Of a stretch of DNA of 45,336 nt, positions 8,333-45,336 are shown piece by piece (within the stretch, counting starts at the first letter, position 1; each line of letters starts with the position of its first letter). A program made the position numbers and the translations under genes. Origin of the DNA: a virus; IMG/VR virus record IMGVR_UViG_3300046659_000007, positions 1 to 45,336 of that record; one strand, given 5' to 3'. A model generated the notes under the pieces. That model had not been told where the DNA came from and did not search any database. It worked only from the letters and a program-made list of their open reading frames with translations.

Positions 8333-8370
8333 GGCTGCTGCTATTGGCAGCGCCAGCCAGTGTCAAGGTC

Positions 8371-8394
8371 GATCAGTCCACTGGTCTACTGACA
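8371..8394. repeat. 8-bp-periodic GACCAGTC-family array
   Basis: GATCAGTC CACTGGTC TACTGACA. A second cluster (GACCAGGC TACCAGAA) lies at 8427-8442. Intergenic, between 8434..8826 and the scaffold gene. Confidence 0.6.
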
Positions 8395-8433
8395 GGCCAG
8401 ACGGCGGCGCGCTCGAGCAGCTAGTCGACCAGG

Positions 8434-8826
8434 CTACCAGAAGACACCATCGCCGCAGAGCGCGAGGTATTCAGGCAGCCAAGGCCCCGTTGTTCCGTGC
8501 TTCTGGTTGAGCTCGACAAACTCGCGCACTGTGTAGGTGGTCGTTTGCTGCGGCCGCATGTACCTGCGGAACGCCTCGGCAGTGTCGACTCGCCAGACAC
8601 GCTCTGACTTCGCATCGTCGATGCCGCCCTGCACGATGAGCTCGTGCGGCACGAGGCGGACCCAGCCATGCGCGAAGCGCAGGCCATCGCCTGGCGCTAG
8701 GCAGATGCCGTGCACGACACGAGCGTCCCGCGCGATCTGCGCTGGCGTCGCCTTGCGCAGCCGCACGAGCACCTCGAGGAACTCGAGCGCATCATCAAAG
8801 CAGGTGCCAGTCGGCCGCAGGCTCAT
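8434..8826 (-). CDS. Hypothetical protein (Cys/His-containing, function unknown)
   Basis: 130-aa ORF with gene-like codon usage. A possible Cys...His pair (TCFDDA ... HGIC ... HGWV) was noted but is not diagnostic. Confidence 0.5.
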   Translation of the reverse strand: MSLRPTGTCFDDALEFLEVLVRLRKATPAQIARDARVVHGICLAPGDGLRFAHGWVRLVPHELIVQGGIDDAKSERVWRVDTAEAFRRYMRPQQTTTYTVREFVELNQKHGTTGPWLPEYLALCGDGVFW

Positions 8827-9233
8827 GCGAGTCGAGCCGCCAACCAGTCGGCCAGCGCGCCATGCTCATCGGCCTCCCAGCCAGCGCGCGATGCGACCTC
8901 GACCAGACTGCCGAGCTCGCGCTCGAGTCGCTCGACCGAGGCCTCGAGCTGCGCCTGCCGCCGCAGGGAGCTTTGCTCCCGATGCTCATCGGCGAGCTGC
9001 AGCGACTGCCACTGGCCATCGATGCGCTCCTCGACCTGCGACACCTCGGCCTCGACATCGGCGATGCGCTGCGCGAGCGCTGGCAGCGACGGCTGCTCGA
9101 GCGCGACGCAGGCCGCGTGCACAGTCTCAAGTAACGGGTCAATCATCGGATCGAGGCCGCGTTCAGTCATGAGCCGCAGGCGAAACGATGCCAGGTCGCG
9201 CAGGCGCGCGATGTGCTCCGCAGGTGTCTGCAT
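8823..9233 (-). CDS. Hypothetical coiled-coil protein
   Basis: 136-aa ORF with a 4-nt overlap with the downstream gene. Confidence 0.5.
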   Translation of the reverse strand: MQTPAEHIARLRDLASFRLRLMTERGLDPMIDPLLETVHAACVALEQPSLPALAQRIADVEAEVSQVEERIDGQWQSLQLADEHREQSSLRRQAQLEASVERLERELGSLVEVASRAGWEADEHGALADWLAARLA

Positions 9234-14639: not shown

Positions 14640-16109
14640 CTACAGCTCGAGCGACTCGAGCGCCGCCAGATAGTCTGCGGCGCCTCCCTTGAGGTAGTGT
14701 CTAATGGCCTGCGTCTGCGCATCAACGCGATCATTCGCGACACCTCGAGGGAACCGTTTGTGCTCGGTTGCCCAGTCGTGAACCCATGGCGCGAGCGACG
14801 GGTCTGGCAGCCACACGTTGCCAGCGGCGAACACTGGCTGTGTAGCGTAGGCGCGAGCCTCCTTACTGCCGTCTGGCGTGACTGGCAGCACGCCGCTCAC
14901 CTGCTTGCGCAGCATCTCGATCACGGCAGGGCCGTTTGCTTTGTCCTCGACTAGCGTGGTCGTGATCTGCGGCCAGCGCGCGAGCAGCGTGCGCGCCGCA
15001 GCGACAGTGCCGAGAAAGTCGAGGTGCTCGCGTATCTCATCGAGCAGCCAGAAGTGCGGCGGCCTGTAAGCCCACACCTGCGCGGCGACATAGCTCGAGG
15101 TGTCATGCGCCTTGAATGCGCAGTCGAGCGACAGGCACACGAGCTTTCCCTCGAGCGGCGGTCGCACGAGGTAATACTGCTGCAGCCATTCCTGCCGATA
15201 GATGGCGCCGCCCTGCGGCACTGGGTCCTGCTGGTCTTGGGCTGCCCAGCCATCAGGGCCGAACTCCTGCTTACGCCGATCGACCTCGGCGTCTGGCCAG
15301 CGCGCCTCGCAGAGCAGCTCGCCATCGGCCTGCCGAGGATCCTGCCAGCCGATAGGCGTAGGCGCTCGGCGCGCTGCGCTGATGTAACGCATCGGCATCG
15401 CGAGCACTGCATACCCTTGCTCGGCGGCGAGGCCTGCGAGGTCGCGATCGTGCAGGCGTTGCATGATGATGGTGCGTGTGTTGTTGCCAGGCAGCACACG
15501 CGACGCCATCGTTTCAAACCACCACAGCCGAGTGTGCTCGAGCATCGTCGCGCTGTGCGCATCGGTCGGCTTCATCGGATCATCAACGACCTGCCTGTGT
15601 GCGTGAAAGCCAGTCGGCGAGCCGCCGACGCTGATGGCCTGGCGGATGCCGCCTCGATCATTCTCGAGCCAGTCGGCGAGCCAGCGGCCTCGCTTCGGCT
15701 TCCACACCTCGCGATATAGGTCGCGATACCATTCGCTCTCGAATAGCGTGCGGCACTTGAGCGAGTCGCGCACAGCGAGCGCATCGGCATAGGCCCCGTA
15801 TTGCCACTGACAGCCAGGGTTTATCGACCATTCCCACGCTGGCCACATGACGCAGACAGTCGTGCTCTTGCTCGAGCCTGGCGGAACGTTGATGACCAGC
15901 CGCGGCAGCTCGCCTCGGCTCTGGGCCTCGAGGTGCTCGGCGACTGCGCCTATGTGCCAGTTGTCGACATAGGGCGCATTCGGCACGACGATCGGCCATG
16001 CGCTCTTGATGAACTCGTAGAGGTTGCGAGGCGTGCGAGCTCGCCGCTCGACACGCTTGCCTCGCTCTGCGATGAGGGCAGCGAGGCTCGGCTTACGCTG
16101 CACCGCCAC
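14640..16109 (-). CDS. terL: Terminase large subunit
   Basis: 489 aa. Walker-A-like region PPGSSKST, a C-terminal nuclease-like region, and position upstream of the portal. Confidence 0.8.
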   Translation of the reverse strand: MAVQRKPSLAALIAERGKRVERRARTPRNLYEFIKSAWPIVVPNAPYVDNWHIGAVAEHLEAQSRGELPRLVINVPPGSSKSTTVCVMWPAWEWSINPGCQWQYGAYADALAVRDSLKCRTLFESEWYRDLYREVWKPKRGRWLADWLENDRGGIRQAISVGGSPTGFHAHRQVVDDPMKPTDAHSATMLEHTRLWWFETMASRVLPGNNTRTIIMQRLHDRDLAGLAAEQGYAVLAMPMRYISAARRAPTPIGWQDPRQADGELLCEARWPDAEVDRRKQEFGPDGWAAQDQQDPVPQGGAIYRQEWLQQYYLVRPPLEGKLVCLSLDCAFKAHDTSSYVAAQVWAYRPPHFWLLDEIREHLDFLGTVAAARTLLARWPQITTTLVEDKANGPAVIEMLRKQVSGVLPVTPDGSKEARAYATQPVFAAGNVWLPDPSLAPWVHDWATEHKRFPRGVANDRVDAQTQAIRHYLKGGAADYLAALESLEL

Positions 16110-17337
16110 TGCGGCGCTGCGCGCTCTGGCCTGTCAGTGCCTGCCAGCGTTCGATGATCACATCGCAGTAGGCAGGCGCGAGCTCGACTGCAGTGCACAC
16201 TCGGCCGAGCTGCTCGGCGGCGATTAGCGTTGTGCCGCTGCCAGCGTACGGATCGAATACCTCGCCGCTCGTGAACTTGAGGCAGAAGCCGAGCAGCTTG
16301 ACTGGCTTCTGCGTCGGATGCTTGCGCTTCTCGTGCTCGCCAGCGCGGATCATTCCGTTCCACAGCTGGCGATGCACGCGCGCAGGGCCTGTCTGGTTCG
16401 ACCAGGCGAGCTCGCAGTCGGCGAAGCTATTCTCGATGCCGCTATCATCGCGCTTGTCCCACACGAGCCAGCCGCCCTGCGCTGGTAACTGGTCGGCGAA
16501 GTAGTTACCGCCCCACATGATCACGACCTCGCCGCGCTCGAGCAGCCAGCGCACATCCGGCGTGCTGTCATCGCCAGCAATCGGCGCGTACTTGCCTGCT
16601 TTGGCGACGGTGCCGAACTTAGCCGATTGCGCGCCTGCAGCGCCGACACGGCCCTGCTTGGTCACAACCGAGATACCGTAGGGCGGATCGGTAATCACTG
16701 CGCCGAAGCTGCGCACAGGTGTCTGCCTTCCATCGCCGCAGATCAGCGTGTGAGCGCCGAGCTGCCAGACATCGCCGAGCCTGCTCACTGGGTCGACAGG
16801 CACTGGCGGCGCCTCATCCTCCTCGAGCTCGGCCTCTGGCTTATCGCTGCCGCTGAGCTCATCTGCGAGCGCCTCTATATCCTCGCTCGACCAGCCTGCG
16901 AGCTCGGCCTCGGCCAGGTCAAACTTAGACAGCACGCTCGCGAGCGAGTCGCTCCATGTCGCGAGCTCGCCTAGTCGGTTGTCGGCGAGCGCGAGCAGGT
17001 GTGCCTCGCGCTCGCTGATGTCGAGCAGCCGCACTGGCACCTGCGGCAGCTCGAGCGCGAGCGCTGCTTTCCATCTTGTGTGCCCTGCGATGATCTCTCG
17101 GTTGGCTGCGCGCGCAACGATGACAGAGCCGAAGCCGAACCGCTTGATGCTCTCGATCACAGCCTCGACAGGCTCGCCATCGTTGAGCCGAGGGTTATCG
17201 CGCCAAGGCTTGAGCTCCTTCGGCGACAGCCAGACGGCAGGCGATGCAGCCGCCAGCGGCGAGGCCTTGGCGGCGGCGGCCTTGCGCGCTGCTGGCTTAG
17301 TTGCTGCTGCTTGGTTCTGTTTTGCTTTTGGTTTCAT
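16093..17337 (-). CDS. ParB-like nuclease domain / DNA methyltransferase fusion
   Basis: ParB N-terminal-like region (GEPVEAVIESIKRFGFGSVIVARAANREIIAGHTRWKAA). Methyltransferase motifs TDPPYG and DPYAGSGTT. Start chosen at MKPKAK (ATG 17337); the track ORF extends to 17514. Confidence 0.75.
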   Translation of the reverse strand: MKPKAKQNQAAATKPAARKAAAAKASPLAAASPAVWLSPKELKPWRDNPRLNDGEPVEAVIESIKRFGFGSVIVARAANREIIAGHTRWKAALALELPQVPVRLLDISEREAHLLALADNRLGELATWSDSLASVLSKFDLAEAELAGWSSEDIEALADELSGSDKPEAELEEDEAPPVPVDPVSRLGDVWQLGAHTLICGDGRQTPVRSFGAVITDPPYGISVVTKQGRVGAAGAQSAKFGTVAKAGKYAPIAGDDSTPDVRWLLERGEVVIMWGGNYFADQLPAQGGWLVWDKRDDSGIENSFADCELAWSNQTGPARVHRQLWNGMIRAGEHEKRKHPTQKPVKLLGFCLKFTSGEVFDPYAGSGTTLIAAEQLGRVCTAVELAPAYCDVIIERWQALTGQSAQRRSGGAA

Positions 17338-17635
17338 CTGGACTCTGCGCATCTGGCGCGCGCAGCAGGCGCTCGGCTGCGTATCGCTCGGCGACGCCAG
17401 CGACCTCTGACACGAGCTCGGCGAACTGCGCCTGTGTAACTGACAGTCCTTGCGACGCATGCTCGATGATGCGCTCGACAATGAGCCTCGAGGCAGCGTC
17501 GGCTGCCTCCGCATTCTTATCCATGATCGCTAGCGCATAGGCGCGACCAGTGAACACTAGGTGCATTGCGATGCTCAGCGCTGCGGCGACTAGCAGCTCA
17601 TCGCGACGATCGGCCTTGCCTGTCGGTTCGCTCAT
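17297..17635 (-). CDS. Hypothetical protein
   Basis: 112-aa ORF with gene-like composition. Its 3' end overlaps the next gene by about 40 nt. Confidence 0.45.
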   Translation of the reverse strand: MSEPTGKADRRDELLVAAALSIAMHLVFTGRAYALAIMDKNAEAADAASRLIVERIIEHASQGLSVTQAQFAELVSEVAGVAERYAAERLLRAPDAQSPDETKSKTEPSSSN

Positions 17636-27762: not shown

Positions 27763-27882
27763 TATGTTGCGAGCTTGCACAAGCTCTAGTAATGACGCCA
27801 GACGATGACAGACCAGAACCGCAGCGGCACGCACAGCGCGCCCTATACTCGCCGCGATGGCGTGTCGACACGCTCGACAACA

Positions 27883-28011
27883 ATGCACCTCGACATCGAG
27901 GTGCACCGCAAGCTGCGGATCGCAGCGGTCGAGCTCAACACGCACATGAGCACGATCATCGATGCCGCCCTGCGCGACTGGCTGCTCGCCAACCAGCGGC
28001 GGCGGCGCTAA
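27883..28011 (+). CDS. Ribbon-helix-helix (CopG/Arc-like) DNA-binding protein (may start at 27805)
   Basis: MHLDIEVHRKLRIAAVELNTHMSTIIDAALRDWL fits a strand-helix-helix pattern. Confidence 0.5.
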   Translation: MHLDIEVHRKLRIAAVELNTHMSTIIDAALRDWLLANQRRRR

Positions 28012-28301
28012 TGCCGAAAGCTAAGTACGTGCGCCCACCATCGCGCGCTGGCAAAGTCGCGATCAACGTCTATGTGACCGAGCTCGAGCGCATGGCACTC
28101 AAGGTCTATGCCGCAAAGAACAGCACTACGCTCGATGCGCTCATGACCGAGGCGGTTGAGCTCGCGACTAAGGTCCCATTCTCGAGCTACATATCGAAGG
28201 TCAACGCCGAGCGCTTGCGGCAGCTGGCCGAGGCGAGCGGCAAAACTAATGTGCGGCTACTCACAGAGGCGCTTGATCTGCTTTTCAAGGCCTACGAGTG
28301 A
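28011..28301 (+). CDS. Protein with two tandem RHH-like modules
   Basis: Two modules: KVAINVYVTELERMALKVYAAKNSTTLDALMTEAVELA and YISKVNAERLRQLAEASGKTNVRLLTEALDLLFKAY. It has a TAATG overlap with the upstream ORF and a GTGA overlap with the downstream ORF. Confidence 0.45.
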   Translation: MPKAKYVRPPSRAGKVAINVYVTELERMALKVYAAKNSTTLDALMTEAVELATKVPFSSYISKVNAERLRQLAEASGKTNVRLLTEALDLLFKAYE

Positions 28302-28882
28302 CATCGTCTGCGCCGAAGCTGGCCACCTATGCCGACCTGCTCGCGCTGCCAGAGGGCATGCGCGCCGAGCTGGTCGGCGGCCAGGTTGTGATGATGCCCG
28401 CTGTGCTGCCGAGGCACGCTAAGTCTGCAGGTGCGCTGCGCCGATTCGTTGGCGGTCCGTACGATGATGATGATGGCTATGGAGGCCCTGGCGGATGGTG
28501 GATTCTGCCAGAGGTCGATGTGCAGCTCGAGGCGCATGAGGTCGTGCGGCCAGACCTATCTGGCTGGCGGCGCGAGCGGCTGCCAGAGCCAGGTGATGTG
28601 CGGCCGATCTGCGTCGTGCCTGACTGGGTCTGTGAGGTTATCTCGCCGACCAGCGCCAAGCGCGATCGGGTCGACAAGCGCGCGCTATACGCTCGAGCTG
28701 GCGTCGCGCACTACTGGCTGGTCGACCCAGAGGCGCGCACGCTCGAGGCGCTCGAGCTGCGCGCTGGCCGCTGGCTTGAGCTCGGCGCATATACCGATGG
28801 CGACTGCGCGCGCATCGCGCCTTTCGAGCAGGTCGAGCTCGAGGTCGGCAGGCTGTTTATGCCGAGGCCTGCCGACGTCTGA
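28298..28882 (+). CDS. Uma2-family (DUF820) PD-(D/E)xK endonuclease
   Basis: VVRPDLSGW, VCEVISPTS and RVDKRALYARAGVAHYWLVDP match the Uma2 family pattern as I recall it. Confidence 0.7.
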   Translation: MTSSAPKLATYADLLALPEGMRAELVGGQVVMMPAVLPRHAKSAGALRRFVGGPYDDDDGYGGPGGWWILPEVDVQLEAHEVVRPDLSGWRRERLPEPGDVRPICVVPDWVCEVISPTSAKRDRVDKRALYARAGVAHYWLVDPEARTLEALELRAGRWLELGAYTDGDCARIAPFEQVELEVGRLFMPRPADV

Positions 28883-29215: not shown

Positions 29216-29378
29216 AACTGCCCCGTTGCTAAAACCTCAATGATTCCGCTAATGTGCCTTAGTGGAAAAACGGCGCCCCTTCCCTCATCGCAACTCACGT
29301 AAGCGCACGATCGGCCTGAAACACAGGGCGCCGCCGATCGGCCGAGGATCGGCGCTCGCGCGCCTACCCTCACAGCCG

Positions 29379-30368
29379 ATGGTAGACCAGTCGACCAGTC
29401 GACCAGCCGACCAGCGGCCTGCTGCGCTCGACATCGGCCAGGATCTCGAGCGCCTCATACGTAACTATGCGGCATTCGCGAAGCGCGCCAAGGCCGATCG
29501 TACAGTCACAGAGTATGCAGCGCAGTGGCGCAGGTTCGACGCATGGTGCGCAGTGCGCGGCCTGAACTCGCTGCCCTGCCAGCCGCAGACGCTCGCGCTC
29601 TACCTCGCCTCACTGGCCGAGCGCCTCAAGGTCGCATCGATCGCGATGGCCCTCGCTGCCGTCTGCGCCAAGCATCGAACCGCAGGCCATTCCGATCCGC
29701 AGGCAAGCCCGATCATCGGCGAGCTCTGGGCAGGCATCCGCCGCTCGCTCGGCAGCGAGCAGCGCCGAGTCGCGCCGCTGCTCACAGAGGACCTGCATAC
29801 GATCGCGCGCGCGATGCCGCACACGCTGGCAGGCAAGCGCGACAGGGCGCTGCTCGCGCTCGGCCTCGGCGGCGCGATGCGTCGATCCGAGCTGTGCGCG
29901 CTCACTGTCGAGGATGTGAAGTTCCAAGCGAGCGGCGGCCTCGTGCTGCGCATACGCCGCAGCAAAACAGACCAGGAAGGTAAGGCGGCGCGCATCGGCA
30001 TCGCTCGAGGCGGCTCGCGCATGACCTGCCCAGAGCGCAACCTGCGCGCCTGGCTCGAGGCCTCGCGCATCAAGAGCGGACCTCTATTCCGCTCCGTCAA
30101 TGGCGAGCGCATCGGTCGCAGCGCGCTGTCTGGCCGCACCATCGCCAACATCATCAAGCGCGCAGTCGAGGCAGCAGGCCTCGACCCAGAGCTGTATTCT
30201 GGGCACAGCCTGCGCGCAGGCCTCGCGACCAGCGCCGCTCGAGCTGGCAAGGCCGACCGAGCGATCATGCAGCAGGGCCGATGGTCTAACCGAGCGACGG
30301 TGGATCGCTACGTGCGCGACGCCAGACTGCTCGACCGAGACAACGCGAGCGCAGACATCGGCCTATGA
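29379..30368 (+). CDS. Tyrosine recombinase (Cre/Xer-like integrase or resolvase)
   Basis: RDRALLALGLGGAMRRSEL, GHSLRAG and GRWSNRATVDRY supply the R...HxxR...Y catalytic pattern. Start chosen at ATG 29379. Confidence 0.8.
   Translation: MVDQSTSRPADQRPAALDIGQDLERLIRNYAAFAKRAKADRTVTEYAAQWRRFDAWCAVRGLNSLPCQPQTLALYLASLAERLKVASIAMALAAVCAKHRTAGHSDPQASPIIGELWAGIRRSLGSEQRRVAPLLTEDLHTIARAMPHTLAGKRDRALLALGLGGAMRRSELCALTVEDVKFQASGGLVLRIRRSKTDQEGKAARIGIARGGSRMTCPERNLRAWLEASRIKSGPLFRSVNGERIGRSALSGRTIANIIKRAVEAAGLDPELYSGHSLRAGLATSAARAGKADRAIMQQGRWSNRATVDRYVRDARLLDRDNASADIGL
29385..29416. repeat. 8-bp-periodic array, four direct units
   Basis: GACCAGTC GACCAGTC GACCAGCC GACCAGCG, beginning 6 nt after the recombinase ATG. 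Confidence 0.75.
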
Positions 30369-31672: not shown

Positions 31673-31721
31673 CAGGGCGCTGGTATAGCCAGCGCCAGCC
31701 GTGCTACCATTTCGTATCGCG

Positions 31722-31730
31722 CGCTATATT
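31722..31730 (+). promoter_or_regulatory. CGCTATATT box upstream of the 31756-parA operon
   Basis: Its extended context (tcgcgcgctatattgg) resembles that at 30888-30903. Confidence 0.4.
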
Positions 31731-31755
31731 GGCACGCTGAAACGGCAGGCAGGCT

Positions 31756-31947
31756 ATGGCACGCAATCGAACCTGGATAGTTATGTGCATCCCAGCGAGG
31801 CGCGACGATGGCGCCTCGAGCTACTTTGCTTACAACACATACACGCAGCGCTCGCGCGCTGCGGCCTCTGCCGCCGATGCGCGAGGCATGTGTCGCGACC
31901 TCAACGCTGGCATCGATCCGAGCGATGTCGCGAGCGTCGTGAGATGA
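31756..31947 (+). CDS. Hypothetical small protein, translationally coupled to the ParA-like gene
   Basis: 63 aa, with an ATGA overlap with the ParA start. Confidence 0.4.
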   Translation: MARNRTWIVMCIPARRDDGASSYFAYNTYTQRSRAAASAADARGMCRDLNAGIDPSDVASVVR

Positions 31948-32633
31948 CCACTATATTCGCCCTAGGCAACCAGAAAGGCGGCGTAGGGCGCTCAACGCTC
32001 GCAGTCTCGCTCGCCGCATACTGGCTCGAGCGAGGCCGCAAGGTCCTGCTGGTCGATGCCGATGAGCAGGCGACTGCGCGCACGTGGGTTGAGGTCGCGC
32101 TCGAGCACGAGCGGCCAGCGCCGACTGTGATCGCAATGGGCGTGTCGATGCATCGGCGCGACCAGCTGCCGCGGCTGGCGCCTGCATACGACATCGTGAT
32201 CATCGATACGCCTGCGAGGCTCGGCGAGGTACAGGGCGCAGCGATGCTGTGCGCAGACGTCGTGATCGTGCCCTGCGGACCAAGCGCGCACGAGTGCTGG
32301 GCAATGGCCGAGAGCGTGCAGCTGGTCGACAAGGCGAGGTCACTGCGGCCAGAGCTCGAGGCCTGCATCGTGATCACGCGCAGGATCGCACGCACGACGC
32401 TGGGTCACGAGGCGCGCGAGGTGCTCGAAAAAACAGGGCTCCCTGTGCTCGATGCCGAGCTCGGCCATCGGGTCGACTACCAGGAGGCTAGCGCCGCAGG
32501 CCGAGGCGTGACCAGCTATGCACCGCAGGGTGAGGCAGCGAGCGAGGTGCGCTCGCTGGCAGCCGAGCTCGAGCTGTTCGCTCGAGGCCGCAAAATCAGA
32601 GCGAGCAAGCGCGCAGCCAAGGAGGCACGATGA
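31944..32633 (+). CDS. parA: Small ParA-type (type Ib-like) partition ATPase with an atypical Walker A (KGGVGRST)
   Basis: FALGNQKGGVGRSTLAVSLA, VLLVDADEQ and DIVIIDTPA. It is 229 aa with no N-terminal HTH. Confidence 0.75.
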   Translation: MTTIFALGNQKGGVGRSTLAVSLAAYWLERGRKVLLVDADEQATARTWVEVALEHERPAPTVIAMGVSMHRRDQLPRLAPAYDIVIIDTPARLGEVQGAAMLCADVVIVPCGPSAHECWAMAESVQLVDKARSLRPELEACIVITRRIARTTLGHEAREVLEKTGLPVLDAELGHRVDYQEASAAGRGVTSYAPQGEAASEVRSLAAELELFARGRKIRASKRAAKEAR

Positions 32634-32920
32634 GCAAGCGAGAGCGGGTCAAGGCGCAGGTGCGCGCACCTCGAGCGATGGAGGCCCTCGTGCGCGCGAC
32701 CAAGCGCGCAGCCAACCAGTCGACCAGTGCATCAGTCGACCAGCCTGCCAGAGGCCGCGGCCTCGTGACTCGGCCATCAGGGCGCGAGCAGGATAAGGTC
32801 ACAGCCTATCTGCCTGTCGAGCTCGGCGGCAGGCTGCGCGCCTACTGCGCGACCGAGCGCATGGAGCTCAGCGTCGCAATGGCCGAGGCGCTCGAGGCTT
32901 ACCTCGCGAGCCAGTCATGA
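32630..32920 (+). CDS. ParG-like RHH centromere-binding protein (putative)
   Basis: 96 aa with a basic disordered N-terminus and a C-terminal RHH-like KVTAYLPVELGGRLRAYCATERMELSVAMAEALEAYL. It forms an ATGA overlap with parA. Confidence 0.55.
   Translation: MSKRERVKAQVRAPRAMEALVRATKRAANQSTSASVDQPARGRGLVTRPSGREQDKVTAYLPVELGGRLRAYCATERMELSVAMAEALEAYLASQS
32714..32745. repeat. 8-bp-periodic array, four units, inside the ParG-like coding sequence
   Basis: AACCAGTC GACCAGTG CATCAGTC GACCAGCC. It encodes NQSTSASVDQP. Confidence 0.6.
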
Positions 32921-33624: not shown

Positions 33625-34017
33625 TCAAGGCGCGAGCAGCATGAGGTCGCCTCGCGCGACCAGCAGGCGATCGACCGCATCCGAAACCCACAGTGCCCAG
33701 CCCCACACAGGCTCATGCAGCTGCTGCGTCTGCTCGTAGGTTAGCGCGAGCTGGATCGTCGATGGCGCTGTGAGCGTCGCAGTCCACGCGGCGACTGGCG
33801 GCGGCGTGCTCGAGCGCGCAATGATCGGCGCCTCGATGGTCAGACCTGTGAAGTCGACTGGCGAGCCGTCTGGATACTGCGCGACTAGCGAGAACGCCAG
33901 GCTACCGCCCGCTGCAGCGCGCACCTCAACGACAGCAGGCATCAGATCTAGCTTCGCTAGCGACTGGTTTAGGATGTTGGTTGAGCTCGAGCAGGACATC
34001 GCACTCCCTTTTCTCAC
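33625..34017 (-). CDS. Hypothetical beta-rich protein, last gene of the fibre cluster
   Basis: 130-aa ORF with a GTGA overlap with the upstream gene (or ATG at 33999). Confidence 0.45.
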   Translation of the reverse strand: MRKGSAMSCSSSTNILNQSLAKLDLMPAVVEVRAAAGGSLAFSLVAQYPDGSPVDFTGLTIEAPIIARSSTPPPVAAWTATLTAPSTIQLALTYEQTQQLHEPVWGWALWVSDAVDRLLVARGDLMLLAP

Positions 34018-35072
34018 GCAGGCAAGGCATCGCTGCTCTGGTAGATACGGTGCTCGGTCGCCGCAGCGACCAGCAGGTAGTGCACATCGGCACTGCGCAC
34101 GAGCGAGCGCAGCAGACTGTCGCCAATGACGCGTGGATAGTGAGTGGTTGCGCGCTGCGGATCGTATGCCCTGTTGTCAGCTGGCGGCACCGCAGCCGCT
34201 GACAGCAGACCGCTGGTCATGCGTGGGCTGCCCTCGCCTGAAAACAGATACAGCGGTCCGTTGTACCTCGTCCCTGCGCCTCGCATCACAACGGCAGTGG
34301 TGAACGTAAGCGCAGTGGCGAGCGAGCGCGTTACTGTCATCGCCGAGCCAGTCACGAGCGTGCAGCGCAGCGTGCCAGTCGGCAGCCGCAGCACGACATA
34401 CACACTTGAATCGGCGGCGCTGTAGAACGAGTCCATCAGCGTGCATGTGCCCTCGGGATGCGTCTCGAGCAGTGTCCATGTCTGGTCGAACGGATTGAAC
34501 CGATAGACTGTCGTTTCGTTCGCGCAGATAAACCTCTGCGCAGCTGGCGAATAGACCACGCTCTTGAATATGCCTGGCGCGGTAGCGTAGTAAATGGTCG
34601 GCACGCCCGCTGCTAGGTAGCGCATCCTGTAGAGGCCATCGGAACCGCCAGTATCTAGGCCGCCCACGATCAGCGTTACAGCGAGGTCAGTCGCTGAGTC
34701 GATCGCGTAGTACACGAAGCCCAGCGCGAGCGTCGTGAGATTGGTCCATGTTGTGCCATCCGGAGAGCTAAACAGCGCATCGGTTTGGCCGACTGCTAGG
34801 TATGAGGTGAACGCCTGGCTGTAGTTCACAGCGTAAAAGTTATAGGCGCCGAAACCTGGCGCTGTGACAGTCGCGCCGATCTGCGTCTCGAGGTCGAGGC
34901 GCCGAATCTGCCCAGCGTTGCCGACGCACACGAGGCTGCGTGGATTAGATGCAGTCGGCGGTATCGCTGCCGCCATCGCCGATAGCGTCACACCCGTGAT
35001 CGTGTCGATGCGCCTGGTCTGCCCTATTCCTTGCGACTCGAGATAGCGCGAAAATGCCCTGGGTCCGATCAT
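34014..35072 (-). CDS. Asp-box-like beta-propeller protein, fibre-cluster paralog 3 (lacks the N-terminal anchor module)
   Basis: FSSPDGTTWTNL, YLAVGQTD and a C-terminal YLLVAAATEHRIYQSSD shared with paralogs 1 and 2. It forms an ATGA overlap at 35069-35072. Confidence 0.55.
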   Translation of the reverse strand: MIGPRAFSRYLESQGIGQTRRIDTITGVTLSAMAAAIPPTASNPRSLVCVGNAGQIRRLDLETQIGATVTAPGFGAYNFYAVNYSQAFTSYLAVGQTDALFSSPDGTTWTNLTTLALGFVYYAIDSATDLAVTLIVGGLDTGGSDGLYRMRYLAAGVPTIYYATAPGIFKSVVYSPAAQRFICANETTVYRFNPFDQTWTLLETHPEGTCTLMDSFYSAADSSVYVVLRLPTGTLRCTLVTGSAMTVTRSLATALTFTTAVVMRGAGTRYNGPLYLFSGEGSPRMTSGLLSAAAVPPADNRAYDPQRATTHYPRVIGDSLLRSLVRSADVHYLLVAAATEHRIYQSSDALPA

Positions 35073-36292
35073 GGCTGTCCTAACCCTCGCAGTGACTCGA
35101 GTGGTCCGAAGCAAAATATCGTCGCCGCTGTAGCCGAGGTGTTAGCAGCGACCATGATCATGTTCTGCACGATCTTGATGCGCACAGCGGCGCCGCCGAG
35201 CACGTTCGGAATGCTGCGCGCTATCGCCGCAGGCTCTGGCGCAACAGTGAGATCCTGCAGGAACATCGCGAGCGTCCCATAGGTCGTTGCACTCACTGCG
35301 AACAGCACGAGGATCTGCCTGTTGAGCGGCACGAGCGTGTAGAGGTTTGTGTCCGCGCAGGTTCCGCCAGACGCTACGCTTGCGAACGAGCCGCTCGCTC
35401 CTGTCGCGCTCGAGAACATGTAGAGCTTGCTGTCGGCAGTGCTGCGCGAGAGCACGATGATGCCGAACGCTGCCGACCAGCACATGTCGAATACCGCACC
35501 GCCGCCGAGCGTAGCGAGCGCAGCGCCCTGCCAATCCGGAGCGGATGCTGGCGTGCTGTAGATACCATCAGCCGTTGCAGCGAAGAATCGATTCAGCGTG
35601 CCGCCAACATAGATAACCTTGAGGATCGGCGGAATGGTGCTCGTGACAAAAGTCCAAGTGACGCCATCGGTCGATGTGTAGCAGATGCTCGCGCCAGCCG
35701 ACACGCCGACTGCAATATATCGCAGATTACCATACGCCACACTCGTGAATGAGGCTCCAGATACGCCCACGCTGAGCCGCTGAGTCCAGCCTGTACCTGT
35801 GCCAGATGTTTGGATGATCGCGTTCGTGCCATTCGTGCCGACTGCGACATAGAGGCTGTTGCCACAAATCACGTCGTTGAATGCGCCTGTGAAGCCACTG
35901 GCTGGCGCTGGGTTCGTGACCTCTGTGCGCACCGCATCGTACCTCACGATCGTGCCAGACATGCCAACACCGACCACACTGGCAAGGGCGCCAGGGCCTG
36001 CGAGCACTGCGGCACAACCTTTGATCTGCATCGGCAGCGGTGACTGCGCGTAGTTTCGCGCAGGCACGAGCGCCTGCATCTCGAGCATGCGCTCGAGGTC
36101 GTTGGCCTCTGGCGTCGCTATGTTCTGGATCCAATCATCGAGGTAGTCGATCCAGTCGGACGGGTTGCCGAAAATCCAGTTTAGCCATTCGGCTGGCGGC
36201 GTGTCCTGCGGCATAAACCCAGCGTGCCGCTGCGGCAGCGCTGGCTCGCGCTGGACACCTTCCCAACTTGGTCGCGTTGTTGGCCTTGGCAT
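35069..36292 (-). CDS. Tail fibre / receptor-binding candidate, Asp-box-like beta-propeller paralog 2
   Basis: N-terminal module MPRPTTRPSWEGVQREPALPQRHAGF...PPAEWLNWIFGNPSDWIDYLDDWIQ. Blade-like repeats YVAVGTNGTNAIIQTSGTGTGW and YIAVGVSAGASICYTSTDGVTWTF. Confidence 0.6.
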   Translation of the reverse strand: MPRPTTRPSWEGVQREPALPQRHAGFMPQDTPPAEWLNWIFGNPSDWIDYLDDWIQNIATPEANDLERMLEMQALVPARNYAQSPLPMQIKGCAAVLAGPGALASVVGVGMSGTIVRYDAVRTEVTNPAPASGFTGAFNDVICGNSLYVAVGTNGTNAIIQTSGTGTGWTQRLSVGVSGASFTSVAYGNLRYIAVGVSAGASICYTSTDGVTWTFVTSTIPPILKVIYVGGTLNRFFAATADGIYSTPASAPDWQGAALATLGGGAVFDMCWSAAFGIIVLSRSTADSKLYMFSSATGASGSFASVASGGTCADTNLYTLVPLNRQILVLFAVSATTYGTLAMFLQDLTVAPEPAAIARSIPNVLGGAAVRIKIVQNMIMVAANTSATAATIFCFGPLESLRGLGQP

Positions 36293-36295
36293 CGT

Positions 36296-37513
36296 TCACC
36301 CTCGCGAGTATGGACGCAGCGTCTCGAGCGGCGTGCTCGCATATATGGCTGCGTCTGTGCCGCTGACGTTGCCGACTACGTACAGCGCGTTATGCAGCAC
36401 CTTGGCGCGCCTCGGCTTCGCGCCGAGCACGTTGAGCACGTGATCGGCGCTGCCTCGATCTGGACCAGACGTCGCATGCGACTGCGGCACCGCAAAGCAA
36501 GCGAACGCGCTTCCACTGGACACAAAAGTCACCAGGCTATTCGGCAGCGCGGCCATGCATGCACTGATTGGCGTAGCTGCGAGCGAGTTGCTGCCTATGG
36601 TCTGCCAGTTGCCAGCGGCGCCTGTCGGACTGAACACGTGCTGCAGCGTGTTAGTAGACCAGATGCCGAGCATGTAGACGCCAAACTCTGGCGACCACGC
36701 GACATCGAGCACCGCTGTAAATCCTGTGTATGTATAGACCTGCGTAAACGCAGTCGTGTACGGATTCGGCGAAGCGTACACCGCGCCATTCGTGAACACG
36801 AAGAACGACTGAATGCTGCCGCCAGCCCACACGATGCGCCGAGGCACATCGCTCGCCACTGGCAGCGCGCGCGTCACAGGCGTTAGCGCACCATCGCCAG
36901 CGATGATCACGCTGTTAGCGTTCGTCGCGTCTGTGCCGACCGCTGCGAACATGTTGCGCTCTGGACTGTAGGCAATCGAGGCGAGCACAGACGTGCCGCC
37001 GATGTCGGCATGAGCAGACCACACGACACCATCACTGCTCGTGCGCAGCTTGCCTGTCGCGCCGCAAGCCATATATCGCGAGTTGCCGAATGCTACATCG
37101 TTGCAGTCGACCGCCAGGCCCCACGTGCTCGCCGCTGCGGCATGCGTGACAGGGTCATAGCGAATCGTTTTGCCAGCCACACCTACGCCGAGCACCTGCT
37201 GCAGCACGCCAGCGGCACTGACCGCCGCCGAAAGGCTGTTGACCTGCATCGCGGTCGCATCGACGATCGTGCGCTGCGGGTAAGGCACGCTCGCAACAAC
37301 AGCGGCCTTCGCGGTCGCGAGGTCGGCCGGATACGTCTGGTTCACATAGTCATCGAAGTAGCTGCACCACTCGCCGATGTTGCCGAGCAGCCAGTTTACC
37401 GCCTCGGATGGTGGGTTCTGCGATATCGAGAAACCTGCAGCCTTCTGCGGCGCAGTCGGCTCGATGCGCGCGCCTACCGTTGCCCATTCAAGCTTCGATG
37501 TTGGCCTCGGCAT
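36296..37513 (-). CDS. Tail fibre / receptor-binding candidate, Asp-box-like beta-propeller paralog 1
   Basis: N-terminal module MPRPTSKLEWATVGARIEPTAPQKAAGF...PPSEAVNWLLGNIGEWCSYFDDYVNQ. Repeats YMACGATGKLRTSSDGVVWS and FAAVGTDATN. GGAGG lies upstream of the ATG. Confidence 0.6.
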   Translation of the reverse strand: MPRPTSKLEWATVGARIEPTAPQKAAGFSISQNPPSEAVNWLLGNIGEWCSYFDDYVNQTYPADLATAKAAVVASVPYPQRTIVDATAMQVNSLSAAVSAAGVLQQVLGVGVAGKTIRYDPVTHAAAASTWGLAVDCNDVAFGNSRYMACGATGKLRTSSDGVVWSAHADIGGTSVLASIAYSPERNMFAAVGTDATNANSVIIAGDGALTPVTRALPVASDVPRRIVWAGGSIQSFFVFTNGAVYASPNPYTTAFTQVYTYTGFTAVLDVAWSPEFGVYMLGIWSTNTLQHVFSPTGAAGNWQTIGSNSLAATPISACMAALPNSLVTFVSSGSAFACFAVPQSHATSGPDRGSADHVLNVLGAKPRRAKVLHNALYVVGNVSGTDAAIYASTPLETLRPYSRG

Positions 37514-37515
37514 GC

Positions 37516-37725
37516 TCAGCCTCCACGGTTCGCGGTTACGAACTCATCGAACCAATCGATCCAAGCATCTGTGCTGTAGAGCAGCCAGTTGACGGCGGCT
37601 GCGCTCGCTCTGCCGCCAGCCGCGAAGCCTGCGGCCTTCTGCGGCGCCGTCGGCTCGACGCGCGGGTTCGAGGTGCCTGGCGAGGTTGCCCAGTCTGGTT
37701 TCGCTGGCGGTCGAGGCGCTGCCAT
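37516..37725 (-). CDS. Stand-alone copy of the fibre N-terminal module (69 aa); possible remnant or adaptor
   Basis: RPPAKPDWATSPGTSNPRVEPTAPQKAAGFAAGGRASAAAVNWLLYSTDAWIDWFDEFV aligns by eye with the N-termini of 36296..37513 and 35069..36292. Confidence 0.45.
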   Translation of the reverse strand: MAAPRPPAKPDWATSPGTSNPRVEPTAPQKAAGFAAGGRASAAAVNWLLYSTDAWIDWFDEFVTANRGG

Positions 37726-37741
37726 GGCGCAGCCTACAGTT

Positions 37742-37773
37742 GACCGGTTGACCAGTCCACTAGGCTACCGCGG
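37742..37773. repeat. 8-bp-periodic array
   Basis: GACCGGTT GACCAGTC CACTAGGC TACCGCGG, between the collagen-like fibre gene and the 69-aa ORF. Confidence 0.55.
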
Positions 37774-37794: not shown

Positions 37795-39381
37795 TCAAGG
37801 TGACATCAGCCATTTGCTGTTGCTCTGCACCCGCAGAAAATCAAAAGCGAACAGGGCGGACGTCCCTGCTACGTCGTTGCGGCAGTAGAACCCGACCCAA
37901 GCTAGAGGTGTTACGAACGTGCGCGGAGTTGGCCACTCGTAAGAGTCGCCTGTTTGGCTGTTGTAGAGCCAGCTCCGGCGGGCCGTACCTTCGAATCGGT
38001 CGGCGTACGAGTCCCAAAAGCCAGAATATGGGATGCCTTCCTCGACGTTGCTTGTGTTGTCTATCCGATTGAATCGCGAGTACACACCAAGGCCGTTGGT
38101 GTTGGTTTGACATCCAACGCGAGCCAGCTTCAGCACGTCTGGAATGCCGGCTGCGTCAGCAGCGGCAAATATTGTGCACAGCGGCGTGTAGAACGTGTTG
38201 GTGGGTCGGACTTGCGTTCGAAAGCGACCAGTCACCAGACAGTCGGTTGGGTTGACGTTGCGCGCGATGAATATGTCTGTTGCAAGCGGCAGCTCGAACC
38301 ACAGCCAACTGCCCATGAGAGTCGATCTGTATTGCGTAGGGCCTAAGACACTCCGGCCGTATGGGTCGATATCACCGACGCGTGTAAACTCAGCGCCGCC
38401 ATATATGTTGATGATTTTGTAGAGTGCGCTCGTGTCTGAGGTGAACTCATCGGCGAAGATTGCGCCAGCGGGACTCCGCAGCCACGGGTTACCAGGGTCG
38501 CCAGCTGGGCCGGTCGCACCAGTTGACCCTTGCACACCAGGCACACCCTGCGGCCCTTGGGCACCTGGTGCGCCAGCTGGGCCGGTCGCACCTGGTGCGC
38601 CAGCTGGGCCGGTCGCACCTGGTGCGCCAGCTGGGCCGGTCGCACCGGTCGCGCCAGCTGGGCCGGTCGCACCGGTCGCGCCAGCTGGGCCGGTCGCACC
38701 GGCCGCACCGGTCGCGCCAGTGGGGCCAGGATCGCCTTGTGGACCGGCCGGCCCTTGTGGGCCTGTGCGGCCGCTGACAAGGCCCCAAATCGAGGCGCCG
38801 TCCTCATGATAAAATACCCACTCCGAATAGGTGCCAGCGGGCAATGCAGCGCTCGAGCCGCGCAATCCGTCGAGACCTTGGATCTCCGATGTTCCTAACA
38901 CCTGCACTCTGACTGGCACCGTCACATCGCGGCCGACATACAGGGCAAAATGCGAATCAACCGGTGGTGCATCGATCGATGAGATGATGAACACAACAGC
39001 TTCAGTCGTGCCGACTGGCGGCTGCTGGATAAAGCCCCATGTGCCTGGCGCGATCGTGGCTGTGCCAGCGCTACCAGTCCAAAACTTGATCGATGGATCG
39101 TACCGCAGGCCAGGCACTCGCCAGATCGCATGCTTTCCATCGATCCCAGTCAGCACCTGCCCTTCGACCGGTGGTGCTGCGCTCGCCACATCGACAGGAT
39201 CACCCGTCGTTTGCAGCGCACTGGCGCTGCTGGCATCCGAGCCAGGCGGTCCCTGCGGTCCCTGCGGTCCCTCGGGACCCTCGGGGCCTGCAGGCCCCTG
39301 CGGTCCTGCAGGCCCTCGCGCACCCGATATCGTGACTGGTATCGATGGCGTGTCCGAACCGACGATGACCTTGACAGACAT
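37795..39381 (-). CDS. Collagen-like tail fibre with two G-X-Y tracts and a lower-GC C-terminal domain
   Basis: [28 protein letters not shown] near the N-terminus, then a roughly 95-residue G-X-Y tract mid-protein. It follows the baseplate genes. Confidence 0.75.
38562..38696. repeat. Five tandem 27-bp repeats (3 identical plus 2 identical variants) inside the collagen-like tract
   Basis: cacctggtgcgccagctgggccggtcg at 38562, 38589 and 38616. caccggtcgcgccagctgggccggtcg at 38643 and 38670. Each unit encodes 9 aa of G-X-Y. Confidence 0.9.
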
Positions 39382-39399: not shown

Positions 39400-39431
39400 G
39401 ACTGCTCGACCAGTCTACTGCTCGACTGGTT
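39400..39431. repeat. 8-bp-periodic array
   Basis: GACTGCTC GACCAGTC TACTGCTC GACTGGTT, between the gpI-like gene and the fibre gene. Confidence 0.65.
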
Positions 39432-39436
39432 GCTCG

Positions 39437-40036
39437 TTACACGATCGAGGTCAACCGCCCGCCAGTCGTGAGCGCAGTGTCGGCTAGCCCTGTGTTCGGG
39501 TCGGCGTGCGCGTAGTCGCTCGAGGTGCCGAGCGTGAATAGCGATGTCGTTGGCAGACCCGCGAACGTGAGGTCAACCGCGATGCCCTGCGCCTTGGCGA
39601 GCAGCATGAGCTCGCCGACCTGCGACGCCAGCTCGGCACTCACTGTGCCTGCGAGCCGCACGTGTATGCGCGCTGGCTTTATCTCCGACAGCACGATCGC
39701 GATGCTCTCATCGCAGACCATGCGCAGGATCGCGAGCAGCTCCTCTGGCTTGCCGTTGCTGCGCGATACCAGCGAGCGCGCCAGAATCCAGACGCGGTAG
39801 ACCTCATCGCTGCGGCCTTGCCTCGGCTGGCCGACTATCTCGCCAAGCTGGTCGAGGGCATCGCCAGTCGCGTGCTCAACCATCGTGCCGAAGTAGAGCG
39901 ACCAGACGGCATCCTCGAGCTCCTGCACCTGCACGAGGTAGCTTGCGAGCAGCGCCTGCTGCAGCGACTGCCGCAGGTCATAGATAGGTAGCGCCTGCCC
40001 CTCGGCCACGTGCGCGGTGTTCTGCTCGAGCGTCAT
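39437..40036 (-). CDS. Baseplate protein, Mu gp48 / P2 gpI-like (DUF2313-like)
   Basis: 199 aa directly after the Baseplate-J-like gene with a 4-nt overlap. The N-terminal region is typical of this family by recollection. Confidence 0.55.
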   Translation of the reverse strand: MTLEQNTAHVAEGQALPIYDLRQSLQQALLASYLVQVQELEDAVWSLYFGTMVEHATGDALDQLGEIVGQPRQGRSDEVYRVWILARSLVSRSNGKPEELLAILRMVCDESIAIVLSEIKPARIHVRLAGTVSAELASQVGELMLLAKAQGIAVDLTFAGLPTTSLFTLGTSSDYAHADPNTGLADTALTTGGRLTSIV

Positions 40037-41217
40037 GGCCCCGACCAGGTCGCGCCTGCGAATGTTGCGTATTCACGAGGGCCGATTGCGACTGTAAAGC
40101 TCGGCTGCGTGGGCAACGCGTCTGGCGGCACAGTCGGCGCGCGCGCTATATCCATCGTGAAGTTCACGACACCTTGCACAGCCTGCCCTATCGCGAGCAG
40201 CCGCACGAGGTACACAGGCAGGCCGATATCGAAGTAGGCATGGTTGCTCGGATCGTTGGTCGCGAGCACGAGCGCTGCGCGTACAGACAGCGCGACATAG
40301 GTGGACGGCGAGGCCGTCGTTACCTCGTAGGTTGCGTTGATGATGATCGCTGTCGGTCGAGTGAAGTGCACTGCATGCGTCTCGCCCTCGGAGTCGACTA
40401 CGTTTACAGAGGTCGTGCCGAATGTCTCGATGCCTGCAGGTTTGTCGAGCCAGATCTGCTCGGCGATGGCCTGGTCATCGCCGCCTCGCACAACGACCTC
40501 GAAACTGTGCGGCGGCAGGCCGTTCACATCAGTGACGTCGGTTCGATTCTCAAGGCAGCGGCAGCTCACGACACCTGGCAGCTTGAGCACGTCTGCGCGC
40601 ACGCCGTCGACAGTCGAGCCGCCCTGCGCTGCGAGCTCCTCTTGACGCCGCAGGCGATACGCCTCATCGCTCTCGACATCGTTGCCGAGGTCGGCTGCGT
40701 CTGGATTCGTGACTGCAGTCCAGCCAGGCACTGGCGAGTCGATGTGCGTGAGCGTGCCTGGCGGCGCAGCGATCGGCCCTGTCTCGGTCGCGACAGCCTG
40801 CACCATGTAGCTGCCAGCGCCGATCGAGGTCACTGCGACCGAGGTTGCGAACTGCACTGTCGGCCTGGCTGGGTCGCTTACTCGCGAGCCTGCAGGCACA
40901 GTCACAGCGGCGCCGAGCGTAAGCGCGAGCTCAGCCACGCTCGCCGCTGCAGGCAGGCGAGTCGAGCCAGTGAGCGCGCCGATTGCATCGAGCGCTGTGC
41001 CCTCGGCAGAGTTCGGATCGTGCGAGTCGTATATCTCTTGCGCGAGCTCCCACACCTGCGCGAGCTGCATCGCGAATGCCATGTTGAGATTCGCGAGCAC
41101 GCCAGTGCTCGAGCTATTCAGCGAGCCGTCGATGGTCGAGCGCTGATAGTCCTGCAGCTCGGCGATGATCTGCTGCACTGTCTTTGCCTGAAACCCGATC
41201 GGCGTGAGGCCGCTCAT
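40033..41217 (-). CDS. Baseplate J-like wedge protein (Mu gp47 / P2 gpJ-like)
   Basis: 394 aa. Its position between the gpW-like and gpI-like genes, and its overall pattern, are consistent with the Baseplate_J family. Confidence 0.7.
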   Translation of the reverse strand: MSGLTPIGFQAKTVQQIIAELQDYQRSTIDGSLNSSSTGVLANLNMAFAMQLAQVWELAQEIYDSHDPNSAEGTALDAIGALTGSTRLPAAASVAELALTLGAAVTVPAGSRVSDPARPTVQFATSVAVTSIGAGSYMVQAVATETGPIAAPPGTLTHIDSPVPGWTAVTNPDAADLGNDVESDEAYRLRRQEELAAQGGSTVDGVRADVLKLPGVVSCRCLENRTDVTDVNGLPPHSFEVVVRGGDDQAIAEQIWLDKPAGIETFGTTSVNVVDSEGETHAVHFTRPTAIIINATYEVTTASPSTYVALSVRAALVLATNDPSNHAYFDIGLPVYLVRLLAIGQAVQGVVNFTMDIARAPTVPPDALPTQPSFTVAIGPREYATFAGATWSGP

Positions 41218-44752: not shown

Positions 44753-45307
44753 CTAGCCAGTCCTCCTCACAGCCTCGGCAGTGCGGCGACGCTCGAGGTC
44801 GATCGCTGCCTTGGCTGCGCGTGCAGCATCGGCAGCGCCGACACCTGCGCCGATGTTGACTGTCACAGGGCCGTTGTTGACTGTGTTCGATGGCGCCGCT
44901 GGCGCGCCGCTGCCAGCAGGTGCCGCAGGCACTGGCAGACTCGCGACGCCGAACTGCTGCGTCCCTGCGCCTACGCCTCGACCAGATGCGTACTTCCGTT
45001 TCGCGATCTCATCGGCGATGGCCTTGCGCTTGGCTTCGGCGTCGCGCACCTGCGCATCGAGCTCGGCCGCTCGAGCGGCGCGCTCCTGCTCTGGCGTCAT
45101 GACGCCAGCGCCGAGGCCTCGGCCAGCCGCGCGCCCTGCCGCAGGCGCCTGCTTGTCTTTGACGTCGAAGCCGAGCAGCCGACCGAATGCGGCGCCGAGA
45201 TTCTCGATCTTAGTGACCAGGCCCTGTACCCATTCTCCGACCTCTGCCAGCTTGTCGGCGACTGCAGCGCCGAAGTTCATCGCCGCGCCAGTGACCAGGT
45301 CCCACAT
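44753..45307 (-). CDS. Tail tape measure protein, C-terminal part (joins 1382..1; total about 644 aa)
   Basis: The frame is continuous with 1382..1 once the 31-bp overlap is removed (1382 + 553 nt = 645 codons including stop). The sequence is Gly/Ala-rich. It sits upstream of the baseplate genes. Confidence 0.8.
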   Translation of the reverse strand: MWDLVTGAAMNFGAAVADKLAEVGEWVQGLVTKIENLGAAFGRLLGFDVKDKQAPAAGRAAGRGLGAGVMTPEQERAARAAELDAQVRDAEAKRKAIADEIAKRKYASGRGVGAGTQQFGVASLPVPAAPAGSGAPAAPSNTVNNGPVTVNIGAGVGAADAARAAKAAIDLERRRTAEAVRRTG

Positions 45308-45336
45308 GCCAGCGAGCGAGGGCAGCTCCTTCCATG
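45306..45336. repeat. Terminal 31-bp direct repeat, copy 2 (circular-assembly overlap)
   Basis: Identical to bases 1-31. It lies inside a coding sequence. Confidence 0.9.

Follow-up and report, generated by a model that had tools for sequence, protein, structure and literature searches.

A cassette of four genes on the minus strand of an uncultured phage genome probably encodes a baseplate-anchored receptor-binding module (positions 34014-37725). The sequence analyzed is the 45,336-nucleotide (nt) stretch that makes up positions 1 to 45,336 of IMG/VR record IMGVR_UViG_3300046659_000007, hereafter the window, and it belongs to a myovirus that is probably temperate and has a minimal (Pam3/E217-like) baseplate. 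Three of the cassette genes encode diverged paralogs, named A, B and C, and the fourth, N69, encodes a free-standing copy of an N-terminal module (N-module) that A and B have in common. A is modeled as a seven-bladed beta-propeller. Comparison of the cluster among related phages shows that N69-A-B-C is kept one-to-one and in the same order in five lineages. On the best-supported reading the propeller cassette stands as the lineage's core candidate for host recognition, and a neighboring collagen-like fiber is an accessory.

Cassette proteins and the propeller fold

The minus-strand unit has the following features.

37516..37725, minus strand: N69, 69 amino acids (aa), first gene of the cassette; the putative anchor module alone (N-module hidden Markov model (HMM), E 4e-27)
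36296..37513, minus strand: paralog A, 405 aa; N-module at aa 1-57 (nt 37343-37513), neck and predicted seven-bladed propeller
Within A, minus strand, from the AlphaFold2 (AF2) model: helical, low-confidence neck at aa ~58-80 and propeller at aa 81-395 (nt 36329-37273)
35069..36292, minus strand: paralog B, 407 aa; N-module at aa 1-55 (nt 36128-36292), neck and predicted propeller
34014..35072, minus strand: paralog C, 352 aa; neck and predicted propeller, without the N-module
33625..34017, minus strand: D130, a small open reading frame (ORF) whose GTG start overlaps the C stop; last in the unit

An earlier note on this DNA had described A, B and C as three tandem paralogs, and the three ORFs are present at the coordinates and with the lengths it gave. 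It overlooked N69, which lies between the collagen-like gene and A. The A stop is 3 nt from the B start, and the B stop overlaps the C ATG (ATGA). BLASTP aligned A and B over their full length with 31% identity (E 9e-47), which bears out their paralogy, and returned only E 0.002-0.003 for C against A or B. The kinship of C was established by an hhalign comparison of the A+B family profile with the C family profile (98.2% probability, E 4.9e-14, 316 columns), in which the C-terminal stretch that the note had seen in all three proteins was also aligned. Residues 6-345 of C correspond to residues 64-391 of A, and C thus amounts to the same protein with the first ~60 residues missing.

Searches of Pfam, PHROGs and PDB sequences with A, B and C returned nothing significant, tblastn of A against GenBank phages gave no match, and blastn of the cassette region matched only collagen-repeat DNA. 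The GC content of the cassette (0.617) is lower than that of the baseplate genes (0.643) and of the window (0.647), as had been remarked from the sequence, but the drop is small. The cassettes of related phages are likewise lower in GC than their surroundings.

AF2 modeling of A from a 6-sequence alignment gave a mean predicted local distance difference test (pLDDT) score of 71.9 and a predicted template modeling (pTM) score of 0.73. Residues 81-395 were all-beta with pLDDT mostly 70-93, and the N-terminus was of low confidence. By our own grouping the strands form seven four-stranded blades, with strand 81-86 placed in the last blade (velcro closure). Foldseek comparison of the model with the PDB returned seven-bladed propellers, including Ycf48 (target TM-score (TMt) 0.61-0.64) and WDR5 (about 0.70). 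Comparison with BFVD returned phage proteins with propeller domains, among them a DUF6242 protein, BNR-repeat proteins and a Caulobacter phage tail fiber, and also a giant-virus protein with collagen repeats. The model identifies A as a seven-bladed beta-propeller, the kind of fold that the earlier note had proposed. B, from its 31% identity to A, and C, from the hhalign probability of 98%, are predicted to adopt the same fold; the AF2 model of C itself (2-sequence alignment) was unreliable, with a pLDDT of 45.

The repeats had been called Asp-box-like. The motifs quoted in support are present, but only one or two blades per protein are significant and the rest are degenerate. The motif is a 7-residue S-x-D-G-x-x-W, versus the canonical 8-residue Asp-box, and has one copy in A, two in B and one in C. 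Unrelated proteins served to build a 40-residue blade HMM, which detected residues 135-167 (independent E value (iE) 5e-12) and 179-196 (5e-4) in A, residues 135-173 (7e-9) and 179-217 (3e-8) in B, and residues 79-114 (2e-6) in C. BNR Pfam families gave no match to A, B or C at E<=1, and the best Pfam score was that of B to DUF6242, 15.7 bits versus a cutoff of 29. At E<=1e-3 an A/B profile search retrieved 23,527 representative clusters; most are giant multi-repeat proteins, and their matches fall at profile positions ~125-215. Among the matches listed from the 1.84 billion representatives searched, only a handful were full-length to A or B. The full-length search thus points to membership of a huge blade-repeat superfamily and to little more on function. 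In viral contigs, giant tail-fiber-like ORFs contain the blade repeat in their C-terminal parts as well.

No glycosidase or sialidase Pfam family matched the proteins at E<=1, and the PDB sequence searches were also without a match. A sialidase/endosialidase-type depolymerase was rejected as a candidate, as the A fold is seven-bladed, versus six blades with a GH33/GH58 signature. The C family has two invariant stretches, LLETHPEGTCT (residues ~201-211) and TRYNGPxYxFSGxG (~268-281), that are absent from A and B. Conservation within C is highest in blades 5-6, which in B are the least conserved part. These regions of C could point to an interface or to an active site.

The N-terminal module and conservation of the cassette

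The module common to A and B is ~57 residues long, with invariant W10, E18-P19, G27, N40-W41 and W49. Alignments and the HMM agree with the earlier note that A and B have one module each and that C is without it; the HMM finds three copies in the window (N69, A and B) and none in the collagen-like protein. The module matches the first ~50 residues of PHROG tail-fiber families 7389, 2126 and 4465. Residues 15-55 of A match phrog_4465 (E 0.0018), and the modules of relatives match phrog_7389 and 2126 with E values down to 8e-8. The module profile gave a marginal match (E 0.0028) to residues 35-65 of the phiTE short tail fiber, in which residues 3-92 form a trimeric joint bound to wedge protein 1 (PMC11972413).

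Module genes of other phages were located among viral contigs (labeled L001-L006 and L049-L052) and in GenBank. In L006, an unrelated 40.7-kb contig outside the five lineages, the sole module-bearing gene lies directly 3' of the Baseplate_J and outer-wedge genes and encodes the module followed by a very regular propeller. The product of this gene (8001-9101) is a 366-aa protein with repeats of the form VMTSPDGITWTSRTAAAAN.W..V.WSPEL.LF.AVS..GT.R. It is likely a single-gene, ancestral-type version of the cassette. The single module gene of GenBank MW202816 lies shortly downstream of baseplate wedge genes. In P0008 and 11 further distinct loci (13 with duplicate contigs) other C-terminal domains follow the module, and across the viral-contig loci and P0008 it is joined to at least four kinds of C-terminal region. 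These genes have the features of a fiber slot: a position after the wedge genes (L006, MW202816), a constant N-terminus and a variable C-terminal domain. In the window the module genes come after the wedge genes with the collagen-like gene between. The observations are individually weak but consistent with the N-module being the baseplate anchor of fiber-slot proteins in minimal-baseplate myoviruses.

The cassette is present in four other lineages, all metagenomic (L001/L005, L002/L003, L004 and L049-L052), which together with the window make up the five lineages. Its positions are as follows.

L001, 9788-13821: cassette of the L001/L005 lineage
L002, 3597-7593: cassette of the L002/L003 lineage
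L004, 405-4431: cassette of L004
L051, 7804-11511: cassette of the L049-L052 lineage

Every relative lineage has an N gene (65-75 aa) followed by A, B and C in the order of the window. Counterparts of N69 stand at the same position with 50-65% identity in L001, L002 and L004, and L051 has a 65-aa N-module ORF there; N69 is therefore not a decayed remnant. Orthologs in the four lineages are 36-56% (A), 37-45% (B) and 36-46% (C) identical to those of the window. An all-against-all comparison gave clean A, B and C groups, with 36-66% identity within groups and 24-39% between them (short local alignments ignored). The triplication thus predates the split of these phages, and no copy has been lost since. 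Each cassette lineage has exactly three N-modules, versus one in each of the 13 other module-bearing loci.

Between the window and its relatives the cassette proteins are 42-56% identical, versus 62-80% for the baseplate proteins, a difference to be expected of proteins in contact with the host. The N-module is among the best-conserved parts of A and B (55-67%), and blades 4-6 of B are the most variable (27-36%). In the sequence available for them, no other fiber gene adjoins the baseplate operon in L001 and L002, the two closest cassette-bearing relatives with flanks, or in L051. The baseplate operon of L001, L002 and L004 ends with a 108-118-aa protein (MIDLGKRFPDRQ...).

Membership of D130 in the cassette is uncertain. 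It matches phrog_1084 weakly (E 7e-5) and has no tblastn counterpart in L001, L002 or L004. No homology of D130 to the 108-118-aa protein of the relatives, or to a 117-aa protein of L006, could be demonstrated.

Baseplate, collagen-like gene and regulatory motif

Nucleotides 1-31 of the window are identical to nt 45306-45336, so the assembly is circular (or terminally redundant) with a length of ~45.3 kb; a tape-measure-like ORF at 3-1427 probably runs on across the contig junction. The window has a GC content of 64.7% and encodes a complete myovirus with all structural genes on the minus strand. Small and large terminase, portal, a Mu-F-like protein, major capsid protein, sheath and tail assembly chaperone were identified, and the sheath has <30% identity to any GenBank phage. 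The baseplate genes encode Dit-like, Pam3 gp18-like plug, E217 gp41-like hub, spike, gp25-like and Baseplate_J proteins and a 199-aa outer wedge protein. Features near the cassette, and the copies of a motif found upstream of it, are listed here.

40033-41217, minus strand: Baseplate_J wedge protein, 394 aa (Pfam and PHROG matches)
39437-40036, minus strand: outer wedge protein, 199 aa (Pfam and PHROG matches)
37795..39381, minus strand: collagen-like fiber protein, 528 aa (Pfam Collagen, E 3e-19)
37737..37768, minus strand: octamer-repeat motif (GACTGGTCAACCGGTCAAC) upstream of N69, about 20-45 nt from its start
8368-8434, 24740, 29382-29408, 30847, 31643, 32719-32745, 37747, 39400-39415, 41666 and 42543: copies of the octamer motif

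By analogy with Pam3, the outer wedge and Baseplate_J proteins (39437..41217) are the likely docking platform for the cassette proteins.

The collagen-like protein has Gly-X-Y tracts at aa ~22-47 and ~205-300 with a ~150-aa domain between them, and a ~230-aa C-terminal domain without a family match. Having no N-module, it must be attached to the baseplate by other means. Neither the collagen-like gene nor D130 has a match in L001, L002 or L004 or a counterpart in the L049-L052 gene map. The collagen gene is missing from relatives that keep the cassette and is therefore an accessory of the window phage. The earlier note had coupled the propellers to the collagen-like fiber, and with the gene missing in all relatives this coupling cannot be a necessary one.

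The motif GACTGGTCRAC occurs 25 times in the window versus ~1 expected and is composed of tandem CTGGTCGA units, sometimes palindromic (GACCAGTCGACTGGTC). They lie mostly between genes and 5' of operons, including N69 and the collagen gene, and the motif is kept upstream of the N69 homolog in L001. It is probably an operator/promoter element of a phage regulator, which would give the cassette its own control. An arm-spacer-arm site upstream of the collagen gene was considered as a recombination site of the cassette and rejected, as it belongs to this genome-wide intergenic motif.

Elsewhere the window encodes a tyrosine recombinase (29262-30368), a ParA-type ATPase (31701-32633), a ribbon-helix-helix (RHH) antitoxin-like protein with a Uma2 nuclease (27792-28882) and a ParB-N/DNA methylase fusion (16093-17514). 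Together these genes suggest a temperate, possibly plasmid-like, prophage lifestyle. A scan of genome contigs found no prophage relative and only cellular propeller proteins.

Proposed assembly, alternative readings and known systems

In the proposed arrangement A and B would each consist of an anchor, a short neck and a seven-bladed propeller as the likely receptor-binding, lectin-like head, N69 would be an anchor alone, and C would be a neck and propeller without an anchor. The anchors would dock on the outer wedge of the baseplate, like the fiber N-termini in phiTE and Pam3, and the propellers would touch the host surface. From one-to-one orthologs in five lineages, each with three anchors and three propellers, we infer one hetero-oligomeric device and consider interchangeable alternatives unlikely; taken alone, the hetero-oligomer is a tentative step drawn from gene conservation. 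Its most likely form would be a pseudo-trimer with a trimeric joint made of N69, A and B and a three-propeller platform made of A, B and C. This form is suggested because N69 and C sum to one full-length paralog split at the module/neck boundary and because fiber joints are trimeric (phiTE). N69, A and B would provide one chain each, and the third subunit would be split into N69 and C to give an asymmetric platform. Such a split-subunit heterotrimer is possible, and we propose it with reserve.

Several points weigh against a baseplate-anchored module of this kind. The matches of the module to annotated tail fibers are short and weak (E 1e-3 to 1e-8), and a usable structure model was obtained for A alone, from 6 sequences and with a low-confidence N-terminus. 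The analysis identified no ligand or catalytic site. The cassette of the relatives is transcribed opposite to the tail operon and along with the integrase/ParA block, an uncommon arrangement for structural genes. The idea of a split third subunit is weakened by the fact that N69 and C are not neighbors, and L006-type phages manage with one gene, so homotrimers of such an architecture are viable. The analysis shows paralogy, the fold of A, the distribution of the module, synteny and conservation; virion location, docking site, stoichiometry and ligand we infer.

A multivalent apparatus, as the earlier note imagined, is possible, and a single hetero-oligomeric device accounts for the conservation no less well than three separate receptor-binding proteins (RBPs) do. 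As independent proteins, A and B (and C by another attachment) would sit as homo-oligomers at separate baseplate sites of a multivalent phage. The outer wedge subunit gp23 of Pam3 has two fiber docking sites per wedge (PMC9942802), and a wedge of this type could hold A and B apart. The modules of A, B and N69 have distinct signatures that are conserved within each ortholog group, and the single module-propeller gene of L006 shows that such a gene can work alone, presumably as a homotrimer. Independent RBPs would, however, leave unexplained both the strict conservation of an anchor-less C and a propeller-less N69 and the constant count of three anchors and three propellers. Gene content is moreover invariant in five lineages, unlike typical multi-RBP arsenals, and we regard this arrangement as less likely, though a serious rival.

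The proteins might instead have a non-structural role as secreted or intracellular lectins or glycosidases (depolymerase-like), or as lysogenic-conversion or exclusion factors. Co-orientation of the relatives' cassette with lysogeny and partition genes would suit such a role, many propellers are carbohydrate-active enzymes, and the invariant motifs of C could mark an active site. The N-module, however, stands at the N-termini of tail-fiber families and in the fiber slot of other phages, and the proteins have seven predicted blades, versus six in sialidases, with no Pfam glycosidase or sialidase match at the threshold used. A non-structural role is improbable on this evidence. Host recognition, the function first suggested for the cassette, is made plausible by the fiber-slot position of the N-module, the blade repeat in fiber-like ORFs and the phage propellers in BFVD, but the link to host-range switching that had been drawn with it fell away.

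Such a switch would have the paralogs serve as alternative RBPs chosen by inversion or recombination through the nearby tyrosine recombinase, as in the Mu G and P1 C segments or a shufflon. In its favor, the cassette of every relative is on the other strand from the baseplate operon and convergent with it, while both flanks are collinear with the window. The recombinase at 29262-30368 lies 3.6 kb from the cassette and was overlooked in the earlier note; in all relatives it is the neighbor of ParA, as an integrase or resolvase would be. The note's statement that reverse transcriptase and invertase are absent holds for the ORFs scanned (serine invertase being meant), among which no resolvase/invertase domain was found either. 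The cassette borders in the window have no inverted repeats of >=12 nt with <=1 mismatch, and those in L001 are chance-like; nothing beyond chance-level imperfect matches flanks the cassette in the window or its relatives. For a diversity-generating retroelement, the ORFs scanned offer no reverse transcriptase, and no long direct repeats turned up in the cassette, though the explicit search covered inverted repeats only. Of the marks that define an invertible segment (inverted sites, an invertase and opposed alternative exons), none was found at the borders or among the ORFs scanned. The cassette genes are co-oriented and have their own upstream motif, so flipping would exchange nothing. The change of orientation is accompanied by gene gain (the collagen gene and D130) and by 44-58% divergence of the A, B and C proteins, which with the absence of recombination sites indicates an old rearrangement and not a programmed flip. 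With four genes that are one-to-one orthologous and co-oriented in five lineages, a switching cassette is highly improbable.

The baseplate-anchored module has partial likenesses in known systems. Propeller RBPs already known include phi11 Gp45, PRD1 P2, phiKZ gp131C and endosialidases (PMC4901313). The closest in layout is Gp45 of Staphylococcus phage phi11, a homotrimeric RBP with a three-propeller platform, whose propellers are thought to hold a sugar-binding site and are each closed by an N-terminal strand (PMC4901313). Gp45 is a homotrimer from one gene of a siphovirus, with five-bladed propellers and a C-terminal tower, whereas the window cassette has seven predicted blades, no tower, three diverged genes plus an anchor-only gene, and no sequence similarity to it. 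The C-terminal domain of phiKZ gp131 (PDB 4GBF) is a seven-bladed propeller at the periphery of a myovirus baseplate, for which receptor binding is proposed but unproven (PMC4901313); it differs in being the product of a single gene of a giant phage with no shared N-module. 4GBF was not among the top 50 Foldseek matches of the A model, and no comparison aimed at 4GBF was made. Propellers of the Ycf48/DUF6242/BNR-like type are among the best structural matches (5ojp, 2xbg) and have the blade repeat [YF]G.G.[FY]VAVG..G.I..S.DG..W in common with A and B. They are, however, mostly cellular and often giant multi-repeat proteins, and A, B and C lie below the Pfam thresholds with most blades degenerate.

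The phiTE short tail fiber (PDB 9CUY) and Pam3 gp24 have a short N-terminal trimeric joint on the outer wedge of a simple baseplate, but both are one-gene homotrimers, whereas the window has three genes with the module, one of them module-only, and the match is marginal. A collagen-like element occurs with propeller heads in the eBAP3 fibers of extracellular contractile injection systems (eCIS), where eBAP3 is part of a contractile-tail binding apparatus, and in giant-virus proteins (PMC12923769). In these, collagen and propeller are in one polypeptide, whereas in the window they are encoded by separate genes and the collagen is dispensable in relatives. The Mu G and P1 C segments resemble the cassette in that their fiber genes adjoin simple-myovirus baseplate genes and in that orientation differs between genomes; in the window, inverted repeats are not found at the cassette borders, the ORFs scanned include no gene for a serine invertase, and there are no opposed alternative exons.

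The novelty lies in a rare and unannotated family with a conserved 3+1 set of paralogs that includes separate anchor-only and propeller-only members. Its rarity and its distance from cultured phages limit the practical impact for now. Propeller-headed phage RBPs are known but poorly characterized, above all in myoviruses. The anchor module (P-x-P-x(4-5)-W ... E-P ... G-[FW] ... N-W ... W ... D) would, if confirmed, be usable to annotate the fiber genes of uncultured phages. The old triplication, kept intact in five lineages, points to a homotrimeric fiber turned into a hetero-oligomeric, possibly multi-specific device. A split-subunit RBP, if true, would be an obligate pseudo-threefold assembly derived from a homotrimeric L006-type ancestor, and it could read three surface ligands at one site. 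If confirmed, the cassette would provide a compact model of how phage RBPs gain asymmetry and multivalency.

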